Positions 13,581-15,626 are shown, counted from the stretch's first letter. The stretch: DNA of 27,657 bases from a virus (IMGVR_UViG_2703718778_000008), one strand, 5' to 3'. Notes: generated by a model not told the origin, from the letters alone. Translations and numbers: made by a program.

Positions 13581-15626
13581 TTATGCGGCGTTGCTGTTAT
13601 TGATATCCACCGTCACATACTCAATCAGCACGGGGTAGGTGTCCTGGTTACTGGTGATATCCGTGATCAGCAGTTTGTCGTTATCCAGTCCTGCCGCCGG
13701 GCATTTCGCCAGATTAAAGGCCGCCTGGGTCTGACCGTTGATGACCGGTGTCACGCTGATGCTGTTATTTCCGGCAAACCGGAACACCACGTTGTGCCAG
13801 TTATGATTAAATGCCCCGAAGGTTCCCAGTTTTGCATTCTGTTGTTTGTGCTGCATCAGATTCAGGTTTGCGCTGTCGCTCTGGATGAAGAAGGCGGCCA
13901 GCATATCGTTTCCTGCGCTGCCTTCCAGAACAACGTTTTCAGGTAGCTGAGAAACCGGCCAGTGCAGAGCCATGGCGAAGCGGTTTTCTGCCAGCTGAAC
14001 ACCTTCCGGGATTTTGAAACGAAAGGCAATTTCCCCGCCTTTCTGAAGTAATTCAGCTGCTTTACTTGCAGGCACATCGTGGGCGATTTTCCAGGCTGTT
14101 TGTTGCCCCTGGACTTTTTCCACTCGCATGGCTTTACCGCTCTGAGCAGCAGAGTCATTTACGACGGAGGCTTTTCCATCTGCCCCTGTCCAGCCCTGTT
14201 CTTTCAGTTTCCCTTCCTGTGCGTCTGCGCGATAAGCGACGGCCGTTGTTCTTGCCGGTGATGACTGCGTACCTGCGCCCGGCTGAGGTGCAGGTGTGTA
14301 GGGCTGCGGGCTTTCCGTGGTGGTGCTGTCTGAACCGGCCGTGGCGGGAGGTACTGCGACCACGCTGAACGGTGCGGGTGCACCTTTCAGGAAGGCGACG
14401 GTCTTCCCGGCATGCATCAGGATCGCCGTTGCCAGGCGGTCAGAAATAATGCCGCGGCGGGCCCATGAACTGAAATGCGTGGCGCGATCTGAAGAGGTCC
14501 AGTTTCCGTTACTACGGGATGCAGCACCGTAATAACCGGCTTCTGCCAGGTCAGGATCTTCGGCAGGCAGGTTTGTTGGCGTGTTAGCACCTTTCTCATC
14601 GGTCATCAGGGGCACAAAATAAATTTTTTGCGCTTCTTTGTTCTGATATGCACCGTAAACCACCGGGTACTGAGAGGTATATTGTTGTTTCCAGATATAG
14701 GTGGTATCGCCGCAAATCCAGGGAACAAGTGATGCGTTGCCTCCGGTGCACTGTGCAGCATATGCGCTGAGATCGGCGCGGAACTGATTCACCATGTTCA
14801 GGAATAATTGCGGGTGCTGTGCGTATGTTGCTGATTTCAGATCAAACTCTCCCAGCATCCAGACCACGGATAACAGGACGTTTTTGGGGTTTTTATCCAG
14901 CGCGGCTTTTGTACGGGTAAGCAGATCGTTATACAGCGGTTTGCCGACGCCCCACAGGGATGATTCGGCCGTTGCTCCTGAAGATTCACTGAATGCCCCC
15001 TCAGCGCCGGAAGTAAGCGCTGACCCTCCACGACAGCAAGGTACCAGGAGGATCCCTGCATTTTTCGGGATAAACGCCAGTAATTTTTTGGCAATATGTA
15101 AACCCTGTCCGACGCAGCCATACTGACCTTTTGACAGATCGGCGTTCGGATGATTAAGGCTGCTCATATCCTGTACATCATGGAGACAGTGATCTGCCGG
15201 AATAATATCGTTATAGGTACATGCAGCGCCGCCCGGTGTTACCGTACTGCGACGCGCTAACTGTTTAATTCGTGGATCAGGACTGTCGAATGTATCGGGT
15301 AATGGCAGCCCCTCACCGTATGCCATGCCATTGGACTGACCAGCCAGTGGCACCACATAATAAAACTCTGGCTCAGTTGTGTGTCCAGTGTCGTATCCGT
15401 CGGTAGTGCCCGGTACGGGGTTTTCCTCGCCTTTTGGTACCGGAATGGCTGATGGCAGGTCTCTGTCAGTGACCAGTGCCTGCATCAGGTAAAATGGTGC
15501 TCCCGGCTCTGATGCTGAGACAGGTCCCCCAAGAAGTCCCCATCCTTCCCTGAGCATGGGCGCAAGTTTTTCGGCAAGTTCCTTGTTCGTCATTGCCGTC
15601 ACAAGCTGATAATGTTTCGGTACCAT
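13581..15626 (-). CDS. prophage sialate O-acetylesterase, NanS-p-like: DUF1737 N-domain + SGNH/SASA esterase + C-terminal lectin-like domain (681 aa)
   Basis: The N-terminus MVPKHYQLVTAMTNKELAEKLAPMLREGWGLLGGPV looks DUF1737-like. The esterase motifs LAGQSNGMAYGEG (GQSN block) and VVWMLGEFD (W.QGE.D block) are present. A Pro/Thr-rich linker leads into a ~220-aa beta-rich C-terminal domain. The start at 15626 has GGAG 6 nt upstream; the track start 15647 is an alternative. Confidence 0.8.
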   Translation of the reverse strand: MVPKHYQLVTAMTNKELAEKLAPMLREGWGLLGGPVSASEPGAPFYLMQALVTDRDLPSAIPVPKGEENPVPGTTDGYDTGHTTEPEFYYVVPLAGQSNGMAYGEGLPLPDTFDSPDPRIKQLARRSTVTPGGAACTYNDIIPADHCLHDVQDMSSLNHPNADLSKGQYGCVGQGLHIAKKLLAFIPKNAGILLVPCCRGGSALTSGAEGAFSESSGATAESSLWGVGKPLYNDLLTRTKAALDKNPKNVLLSVVWMLGEFDLKSATYAQHPQLFLNMVNQFRADLSAYAAQCTGGNASLVPWICGDTTYIWKQQYTSQYPVVYGAYQNKEAQKIYFVPLMTDEKGANTPTNLPAEDPDLAEAGYYGAASRSNGNWTSSDRATHFSSWARRGIISDRLATAILMHAGKTVAFLKGAPAPFSVVAVPPATAGSDSTTTESPQPYTPAPQPGAGTQSSPARTTAVAYRADAQEGKLKEQGWTGADGKASVVNDSAAQSGKAMRVEKVQGQQTAWKIAHDVPASKAAELLQKGGEIAFRFKIPEGVQLAENRFAMALHWPVSQLPENVVLEGSAGNDMLAAFFIQSDSANLNLMQHKQQNAKLGTFGAFNHNWHNVVFRFAGNNSISVTPVINGQTQAAFNLAKCPAAGLDNDKLLITDITSNQDTYPVLIEYVTVDINNSNAA

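Follow-up and report, generated by a model that had tools for sequence, protein, structure and literature searches.

We examined a 27,657-nucleotide (nt) stretch of viral DNA (IMGVR_UViG_2703718778_000008), the whole of which is called the window below. The window belongs to a P2-like prophage of E. coli and carries a gene of the NanS-p family of sialate O-acetylesterases on its minus strand. The region around this gene is best explained as an accessory cassette of three parts, which are a late-expressed, lysis-released NanS-p esterase, an antisense small RNA (sRNA) unit resembling the Pas sRNAs, and a membrane peptide of the DUF1378 family. We assign this explanation a probability of roughly 0.75. 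The observations behind it are the homology and domains of the protein, the Ser98/His384 pair, purifying selection, the position in the operon, the presence of the cassette in a sister lineage, and a mosaic relationship with a lambdoid allele.

Esterase gene and domain architecture

The open reading frame (ORF) of the esterase is a 2046-nt coding sequence (CDS) of 681 amino acids (aa) plus a stop codon, with a GGAG ribosome-binding site (RBS) 7 nt 5' of the ATG. The gene and its domains were placed as follows.

13581..15626, minus strand: NanS-p-family esterase gene (ORF, RBS, Pfam, PDB, PHROG, and ratio of nonsynonymous to synonymous substitution rates [dN/dS])
15459..15626, minus strand: DUF1737 N-terminal domain, aa 1-56 (Pfam and AlphaFold2 [AF2] model)
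14412..15377, minus strand: SGNH/SASA catalytic core, aa 84-405 (alignment to 3PT5 and motif positions)
14250..14411, minus strand: Pro/Thr/Ser-rich linker, aa 406-459 (translation)
13584..14249, minus strand: lectin-like jelly-roll C-terminal domain, aa 460-681, Pfam DUF6645 (6YP6 and Pfam)

Pfam searches matched DUF1737 at aa 4-53 (31.3 bits; cutoff, 24), SASA at aa 163-287 (37.8 bits; cutoff, 24.8), and DUF6645 at aa 527-643 (E = 9e-40). In a sequence search of the PDB, aa 84-404 were similar to E. coli NanS/YjhS (3PT5; E = 5.5e-119), and aa 460-676 were similar to the crystallised C-terminal domain of NanS-p (6YP6; E = 8e-60). PHROG 143 covered the full length of the protein (E = 1.3e-294), and no NCBIfam model matched. 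An earlier note, made from the sequence alone, had described a NanS-p-like protein of 681 aa with a DUF1737 domain, a SASA core, a linker, and a lectin-like domain. The Pfam, 3PT5, and 6YP6 matches bear out this description; the note had allowed for best hits lacking the DUF1737 and lectin domains, and both domains were matched. Judged by homology, the protein is an esterase of the NanS-p architecture, with DUF1737, SASA core, and lectin-like domain. Against a lambdoid allele, the dN/dS was 0.16 over aa 84-681 (core, 0.17; C-terminal domain, 0.10); purifying selection acts on the gene. Because the N-terminus contains no hydrophobic stretch, the protein is considered to lack a signal peptide and could meet its substrate only after lysis of the cell or as part of a virion.

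A matching 2046-nt CDS, located in a nearly identical prophage of E. coli LZSFT34, is present in RefSeq/PGAP as a "DUF6645 domain-containing protein" (WP_196612864.1), from which the window esterase differs at 4 residues. The protein cluster of the esterase at 90% identity contains 744 member sequences.

Position in the P2-like late operon

The gene order, obtained from Pfam, PHROG, and PGAP, was L, X, a holin-like gene, lysozyme, and lysB/lysC, followed by the esterase, the DUF1378 gene, R, and S. According to the same sources, the window contains P2-family genes for capsid, terminase, L, X, lysis, R, S, and baseplate, arranged as in P2 apart from the inverted FI-U block described below, and the remaining genes encode baseplate, fibre, sheath, tube, capsid, terminase, and portal proteins. 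These assignments and the contexts of matching contigs agree with the earlier note that the gene of this P2-like prophage has the lysis cassette on one side and the tail-completion genes R/S on the other. The immediate neighbours of the esterase are listed below.

15637..16207, minus strand: upstream spanin genes, lysB (DUF2570-like, PGAP-equivalent 15755-16180) and the embedded lysC (~15637-15846) (Pfam LysC, PHROG Rz-like spanins, and PGAP)
13262..13435, minus strand: 57-aa DUF1378 gene, whose product has a single hydrophobic helix at the N-terminus and a charged tail (Pfam, E = 3.5e-27, and PGAP)
12151..13246, minus strand: downstream tail-completion genes R (12779-13246) and S (P2_Phage_GpR, E = 5.7e-40; Phage_tail_S, E = 2.3e-28)

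The DUF1378 gene corresponds to a 57-aa membrane ORF that had been noticed before. It is the usual 3' partner of nanS-p in lambdoid phages and was also seen after the esterase in Mu-like loci. The gaps within the cassette were 10 nt between the lysC stop and the esterase ATG, 145 nt between the esterase and DUF1378, and 15 nt between the DUF1378 stop and R.

The distance from the lysC stop (15637) to the R start (13246) is ~2.39 kb. Empty sites, in which R follows lysC after ~100 nt with no esterase, were found in 19 P2-like loci of IMG/VR and, by a gpR scan of genome contigs, in 5 genomes of Izhakiella, Enterobacter, Mixta, and Erwinia. Because R comes right after lysC in these relatives, the ~2.39 kb is an addition to the canonical P2 late operon, in agreement with the extra DNA previously suggested at the o-spanin/R junction. 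The gpR proteins of the empty-site relatives showed 54-58% identity to that of the window (54-57% in the contig-scan set). The gpR scans of genome contigs and IMG/VR gave no empty-site relative closer than ~58%, and the exact insertion scars are therefore not mappable.

The GC content of the cassette was 0.47-0.52 in four of five 500-nt intervals and 0.58 in the fifth, and that of the flanks was 0.56-0.58. No minus-strand terminator pattern was found in the cassette by a generic scan, and a tRNA scan found no tRNA. When 10 kb of the backbone was searched against the phage database by megablast, only the esterase matched, indicating that there is no close sequenced phage relative. The closest capsid proteins among phage records were those of P88-like Xuanwuvirus (61-63% aa identity). 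The cassette resembles classical morons and P2 accessory genes, such as bor and lom of lambda and cdt-V of P2-like prophages, in being accessory DNA between conserved late genes, in its lower GC content over most of its length, and in its variable presence among related phages. Unlike these, the window esterase lacks its own promoter and terminator and relies on the late operon; within the cassette, moron-like autonomous signals are confined to the candidate antisense RNA unit.

Distribution and history of the cassette

In a survey of 5,426 complete E. coli genomes, the whole lysis-esterase-DUF1378-R-S segment was found at an identity of at least 98.8% in 12, and several of these strains have STEC (Shiga toxin-producing E. 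coli) names. The exact esterase protein was found on three contigs, always in the context lysB/lysC-esterase-DUF1378-R-S. The DNA encoding DUF1737 and the adjoining linker (aa 1-84) occurred only in the 12 genomes with this prophage, as did the 3' half of DUF1378.

The part between these two ends was closely related to a lambdoid allele, which was present in four genomes (e.g., E. coli 2012EL-2448, locus L002, with the order Q ... esterase-DUF1378-DUF826-holin-lysozyme).

~13380..15377, no strand: recombination tract, 93-95% identical to the lambdoid allele (sequence comparison and synonymous divergence [dS])

Alignment with lambdoid nanS-p regions placed one sharp breakpoint where DUF1737 borders on the core, within the opening codons of the SGNH domain, and another ~55 nt into DUF1378. 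Outside the tract, the window and the L002 allele were unrelated or only distantly related. The dS between the two was 0.13-0.21 within the tract and 2.1 (saturated) in the DUF1737 part.

A sister P2-like lineage (L193) showed 81% nt identity to the window over 14.9 kb and has the lysB-esterase-DUF1378-R arrangement at the matching site. Its esterase was 90% identical to that of the window in DUF1737, 85% in the core, and 71% in the C-terminal domain, and shares the LGE variant of catalytic block III that is described below. Because the sister lineage has the cassette at the same site, the cassette is, judged from these comparisons, older than the split of the two lineages and is a resident rather than a fresh insertion. 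The 93-95% tract likewise represents, on the same comparisons, a later exchange with a lambdoid prophage in either direction. Since LGE-type cores occur at similar depth in P2-like and lambdoid backbones, the direction of the exchange is not polarisable.

In addition, hybrid contigs were found in IMG/VR. Two contigs joined P2-like genes and the esterase to lambdoid holin and lysozyme genes (e.g., L115, in which L, X, endolysin, and LysB/C genes precede the esterase), and another (L189) contained an esterase with a lambdoid-type N-terminus followed by P2 R/S. These contigs look like reciprocal recombination products of two prophages sharing the esterase core, and such switches could be chromosomal inversions or hybrid prophages. 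Thus, of the module exchange between lambdoid and P2-like phages that had been proposed for this locus, the exchange itself is supported by the tract and the hybrid contigs, whereas the idea of a fresh insertion does not hold, because the sister lineage already has the cassette.

Related esterases in other prophage backbones

With 50% identity, the Peduoviridae phages vB_EcoM-705R2 and 569R5, together with an ST131 prophage, gave the best phage-database match to the window DUF1737 domain. A 625-aa DUF1737-SASA-DUF6645 gene is located between lysC and R in P88-like (Xuanwuvirus) prophages (L106 5535-7412, E. coli JJ1886, WP_023363135.1; L004 6001-7251, vB_EcoM-705R2). Its start falls within the lysC stop codon and its end 24 nt before R, and it has neither DUF1378 nor the spacer. 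The P88-like lysB-lysC-esterase junction was present in 375 of the 5,426 genomes, ST131 strains included, indicating that an esterase at this site is common among P2-like prophages. In P88, 520873, 503458, 500465-2, P884B11, PhiR44_2, and Chuche, the flanks were ~96% identical and the esterase gene was absent; the gene is thus accessory in that genus.

From ~aa 69 onward, the core and C-terminal part of the P88-like esterase showed ~85% nt identity to Stx1-phage, 434, and H-19B alleles, a domain-boundary mosaic of the kind also seen in the window. The P88-like and window esterases have the three domains, the lysC/R junction, and a P2-type DUF1737 loop in common, and their identity was 47% in the N-terminal, 71% in the core, and 31% in the C-terminal part. 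They differ in block III, where QGE is intact in the P88-like protein and LGE is found in the window. A word-index protein search with the 84-aa N-terminus returned a single fragment only.

Mu-like contigs contained an esterase of ~683 aa (SASA and DUF6645) followed by DUF1378 and DUF826, located between a tail-fibre assembly gene with a Gin-type invertase and com/mom (L072 6695-8746; also L012, L049, L050, L057, L066, L068-L071, L073, L074, L076, L080, and L084). The N-terminal domain of this protein (~105 aa) is unrelated to DUF1737 and had no Pfam match.

Lambdoid NanS-p proteins of Shiga toxin (Stx) phages, such as 933Wp42/z1466 and vb_24B_21 (gp84) of phi24B, have DUF1737, SASA, and DUF6645, the Ser/His pair, and no signal peptide, as does the window protein. 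In the lambdoid phages, too, the esterase gene precedes a DUF1378 gene and a unit for an antisense sRNA and lies next to the lysis genes in the late operon. The window gene differs in its setting, being located after the spanins and before R of a P2-like myophage, whereas the lambdoid genes are located between Q/stx and the holin gene S; in the P2-like backbone, Q antitermination is not available to the esterase. The window DUF1737 was 90% identical to that of the sister lineage, 47-50% to the P88-like type, and 29-45% to the lambdoid types, compared with which it has a longer, putatively anchoring loop. Most lambdoid alleles were 71-75% identical to the window in the core and 47-52% in the C-terminal domain, and one rare lambdoid allele reached 95%. 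Block III reads LGE in the window and QGE in NanS-p. NanS itself (YjhS, 3PT5) has a homologous SGNH/SASA domain with blocks I, II, and V as in the window, but it is a single-domain protein of ~330 aa without DUF1737 or a lectin domain, and it contains MQGEFD where the window contains MLGEFD.

Candidate antisense RNA unit in the spacer

The 145-nt spacer between the esterase and DUF1378 contains a candidate transcription unit on the opposite strand.

13455..13579, plus strand: candidate antisense sRNA unit (promoter-like elements, fold, and conserved layout)

The unit begins with a -35 element, TTGACA (13455-13460), which is followed by a 17-nt gap and a -10-like TTAAAA (13478-13483). The predicted RNA of ~90 nt (~13490-13579; fold, -23.2 kcal/mol) ends in a GC-rich hairpin (13526-13537/13559-13570) and a T6 tract (13574-13579) that abuts the esterase stop. 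The layout was kept in 23 of 23 distinct spacer variants from lambdoid, Mu-like, and P2-like phages despite their widely differing sequences. The variants showed TTGAC(A/T), 17-18 nt, and then an A-rich hexamer, and all six stem pairs of the hairpin were predominantly kept, two of them with compensatory changes. The sRNA-like unit suggested in the earlier note is therefore retained on the plus strand only. On the minus strand, the spacer folds into an ordinary hairpin without a U-tract (z = -1.57, not significant), and a generic scan gave no promoter or terminator, so that a sense-strand sRNA or terminator in the spacer was dropped. With no minus-strand U-tract terminator in the spacer, late transcription should reach R and S.

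The 10-nt motif CTCTCCATAA is located at 13506-13515 (plus strand), just 5' of the candidate terminator hairpin. Its counterpart in the otherwise different lambdoid spacers L058, L065, and L081 is TTCTCCATAGG or TTCTCCATGAA, and the motif may be a seed region.

PasA and PasC (EcOnc51/52), prophage sRNAs known from enteropathogenic E. coli (EPEC) and EHEC, are bound by Hfq and were validated in EPEC E2348/69 by Northern blot and RIL-seq. PasA is an abundant 85-nt RNA (NC_011601 743499-743415, minus strand) between esterase and holin genes (E2348C_0688 and 0689) in the orientation "> < >". Like the window unit, PasA and PasC lie directly 3' of, and antisense to, a prophage sialate esterase gene, and they have a TTGACA -35 element, an A-rich -10 element, a length of ~80-90 nt, and a GC-rich hairpin with a U-tract. 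The window unit differs in its setting, a P2-like late operon in which its neighbour is DUF1378 and not a holin gene. The BLAST-based Pas survey reports only lambdoid phages and would have missed it. Rfam searches (the whole window at gathering thresholds and 13150-13750 at E values up to 5) gave no RNA family, with one spurious hit, and blastn-short against PasA/PasC found nothing meaningful in the window and only terminator fragments in other variants. Because there is neither sequence similarity to PasA nor an Rfam family, the window unit is, as far as its sequence can be classified, Pas-like by position and architecture and not a demonstrated member of the family.

At the EPEC locus itself (L112 2766-3045, E. 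coli E2348/69, minus strand), two tandem antisense units were observed 3' of the esterase gene, each with TTGACA, a 17-nt gap, an A-rich -10 element, and a U-tract-bearing hairpin. PasA corresponds to the distal unit; the proximal one directly adjoins the esterase stop and matches in position the end of a 236-nt minor form of PasA that has been reported.

One alternative concerns this spacer, which might not be an RNA gene at all and might instead hold a one-directional terminator and a chance promoter-like site, together shielding the esterase from antisense transcription. In favour of this, the spacer matches no Rfam family and resembles PasA in terminator pieces at most, and its -10 element is weak and drew no promoter call in the generic scan. 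A chance site is harder to reconcile with the recurrence of TTGAC(A/T), 17-18 nt, and an A-rich hexamer in 23 of 23 diverged variants, and the PasA locus of E2348/69, which is arranged alike, yields an abundant Hfq-bound 85-nt RNA. We consider the terminator explanation possible, at a probability well below even.

DUF1737 domain and possible display on virions

An AF2 model of DUF1737 based on an 8-sequence alignment (pLDDT, 88.9) showed a beta-alpha-beta-beta fold (E5-11, H14-26, E36-38, and E46-53), in which the loop S39-F45 precedes Tyr46 and an aromatic pair is formed by Phe45 and Tyr46. A single-sequence AlphaFold model (pLDDT, 57) was discarded. The longer loop, EPG(A/T)P(F/W)YLMQ, is common to the two P2-like lineages (window and P88-like) and is absent from the lambdoid types. 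Searches of predicted structures in BFVD with the model of aa 1-60 returned matches that include DUF1737 proteins. The closest matches were standalone proteins of ~55-70 aa from very diverse viruses, including the giant viruses Harvfovirus and Edafosvirus, Caulobacter phage Percy, and Vibrio phage nt-1. A Foldseek search of the PDB gave no significant match and no solved decoration protein (best, dodecin; E = 0.11).

A 2026 preprint describes DUF1737 of phi24B gp84 as a hexamer in hexon pores, held via a Tyr42-bearing loop, and reports the esterase in purified virions. By analogy, the label of cargo given to the gene in the earlier note may be incomplete, and the window protein might, as the main rival explanation has it, be mainly a virion component. 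DUF1737 would then dock on P2-type hexons and display an esterase and lectin that bind or modify mucus glycans, the displayed module possibly being shed later by proteolysis, and the phage rather than the lysogen would benefit. This role can coexist with a soluble enzyme. The DUF1737 model has the described helix and three-strand fold, with the loop and then Phe45-Tyr46, in line with such a role; alignment suggests which of these residues correspond to the anchoring loop of gp84 and its aromatic "tooth". The two P2-like lineages that share the longer loop also have capsids that are mutual closest relatives (61-63% identity), the Mu-like version has an unrelated N-terminal domain in place of DUF1737, and the gene is located within a structural late operon.

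Part of this pattern has a simpler explanation. Because the crossovers fall in the conserved core, linkage alone makes the N-terminal type follow the upstream backbone, and backbone-specific N-terminal domains were accordingly downgraded as proof of capsid matching. The T=7 capsid of P2 has no hexon on the 3-fold axis, which is the site used in phi24B (T=9). P88-type phages without the gene are viable, the DUF1737 fold is also found standalone in very different viruses, giant viruses included, and no solved decoration protein matched the model (best E, 0.11). For phi24B gp84, motifs of the SSP type were suggested to be sites of processing; the window protein contains SSP at aa 455-457 of the Pro/Thr/Ser-rich linker, and its N-terminal linker has no SISSP-type motif. 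Experiments in favour of such a role come from one preprint only, which is not peer reviewed and deals with another capsid. A mainly virion-borne role is thus rather unlikely.

An extended form of this proposal is that P2-like phages (the window lineage and P88-like phages of ST131) use a diverged DUF1737 with the EPGxP(F/W)Y loop as an anchor on gpN hexons, that their virions carry the esterase-lectin, and that the catalytic/lectin part is freely swapped with lambdoid and Mu-like phages through recombination within the conserved core, by analogy with the swapping of tailspike receptor domains on conserved anchors. We regard it as speculative and unlikely. If true, Peduoviridae would gain their first described head decoration that carries an enzyme, and nanS-p would be recast from a "metabolic moron" of the lysogen to a shared phage module for interaction with mucus.

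Catalytic motifs and the LGE variant

The SGNH blocks given for 3PT5 are GQSNA, RGGSAF, MQGEFD, and SHFS (PMC10792757). The window esterase keeps three of the four, namely block I (GQSN, aa 96-99, with the nucleophile Ser98), block II (RGGSAL, aa 199-204), and block V (His384), and the Ser98/His384 nucleophile-base pair is thus conserved. Block III is W-M-L-G-E-F-D at aa 256-262 (window 14850-14870), in which Gly-Glu is kept and Gln is replaced by Leu258. The GQSN and W.LGE.D motifs quoted in the earlier note are therefore both present. In SASA/CE6 enzymes, the Gln of the (H)QGE motif was described as organising an unusual oxyanion-hole network (PMC9487903).

The LGE form is restricted to a small clade consisting of the window, the sister lineage (L193/P0037), the lambdoid allele of L002 (P0012), and a further lambdoid allele (P0042), and QGE is kept by the other alleles in which the block III motif was recovered. 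Within the clade, LGE is held across alleles that differ by ~15% in the core. Because the clade is under purifying selection and LGE persists across such diverged cores, the alignment suggests a tolerated or adaptive variant rather than decay.

The replacement in these four alleles, together with the role described for the QGE motif (PMC9487903), raises the alternative that Gln258Leu weakens catalysis and that the allele is kept for glycan binding by the lectin domain or for the linked sRNA and DUF1378. We consider this improbable, in view of the intact Ser98, RGGSA glycine, and His384, a core dN/dS of 0.17 (purifying selection), and the survival of LGE between cores ~15% apart.

Proposed function

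In the proposed three-part cassette, the esterase would be transcribed with the P2 late genes after induction and would accumulate in the cytoplasm, since it has no signal peptide. The adjacent holin, lysozyme, and spanins would then lyse the cell and release the enzyme. The released esterase would strip 9-O-acetyl and related groups from free or mucin-bound sialic acids, Neu5,9Ac2 included, and the lectin-like C-terminal domain would direct it to glycans. The freed sialic acid may feed sibling lysogens that survive, an effect demonstrated by experiment with other NanS-p alleles, and the gut-colonisation benefit for the lysogen that had been suggested before would follow by analogy with these alleles. 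The plus-strand unit would have its own sigma-70-type promoter and be expressed in the lysogen as a ~90-nt regulatory RNA.

Published work on other alleles is consistent with this proposal. NanS-p enzymes produced recombinantly remove O-acetyl groups from Neu5,9Ac2 and from glycans of mucin and sustain growth (review PMC8065619; PMC8319020), and nanS-p transcription is increased on induction (PMC10462455). In ST131, overexpression of the NanS-like EC958_1029 left motility unchanged, and overexpression of a lambdoid paralogue changed it.

Several points weigh against the cassette explanation. Hydrolysis of Neu5,9Ac2 and mucin sialates and induction-dependent expression are documented for NanS-p alleles other than that of the window, and late co-transcription in a P2-type operon, which has no Q antitermination, is suggested by gene spacing only. 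The Gln of the SASA QGE motif is Leu258 here, and LGE could alter catalytic efficiency or substrate. The phi24B homologue was found on virions, so that a released soluble enzyme is maybe only part of the function. For the RNA unit, neither PasA nor PasC is similar to the window RNA in sequence, the -10 element (TTAAAA/TAAAAA) does not end in the usual T and was not called by the generic promoter scan, and transcription of the late genes could suffer interference from a convergent plus-strand promoter.

Many phages carry SGNH esterases directed against surface polysaccharides, which counts in favour of a last alternative, in which the enzyme deacetylates bacterial glycans (O-antigen or capsule, e.g., O-acetylated polysialic acid) and aids adsorption, progeny release, or superinfection control. 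This possibility was raised for NanS-p (review PMC8065619) and would suit a late gene adjoining lysis and tail genes, but it is very unlikely here, as the closest characterised relatives, NanS and NanS-p, are sialate specific, the core is strongly NanS-like (E = 5.5e-119), and the protein is not fused to a tail-fibre or baseplate domain, with separate tail-fibre genes being present in the window.

Other features of the window

Elsewhere in the window, the genes of FI (sheath), FII (tube), the tape-measure protein, and U are located on the plus strand (908-7762) and converge on the fibre genes, and gpD is encoded on the minus strand, diverging from FI. Compared with the P2 order, the FI-U block is thus inverted, an arrangement that was also found in L001, L113, and L193. 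Beyond the portal gene, positions 24501-25500 showed a GC content of 0.38-0.44 and contain a DUF4760 ORF (24806-25309, plus strand), and a MarR-like ORF (25707-26114, minus strand) is located nearby. This low-GC region may be a further accessory or regulatory region of the prophage.

Implications

Neither the esterase family with its domain mosaicism (PMC10462455) nor the Pas sRNAs are new, the protein itself is a RefSeq entry, and the way in which this enzyme family is basically understood does not change. NanS-p has been discussed almost only as an accessory of Stx lambdoid phages that helps enterohemorrhagic E. coli (EHEC) feed on O-acetylated sialic acids of mucin. No link between NanS-p and P2-like phages was found in the searchable literature, and the P2-type setting is thus common in genomes and undescribed in that literature. 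The present analysis indicates that the esterase, DUF1378, and antisense unit are long-standing residents of P2-like prophages, and that ~7% of complete E. coli genomes, ST131 included, have P2-like prophages with a related gene at the lysC/R junction. One module is therefore common to three phage backbones, namely lambdoid, P2-like, and Mu-like.

Near-identical DNA of 1-2 kb across unrelated prophage families can seed recombination, and hybrid contigs were seen, which is relevant to prophage mosaicism and chromosomal rearrangements. For the Pas-like sRNAs, the window provides a variant that would be missed by BLAST surveys seeded with EPEC sequences. Altogether, these results widen the range of strains and phages to be considered for Pas-like sRNAs and for sialate de-O-acetylation, or for display of the enzyme on virions if the phi24B result generalises.

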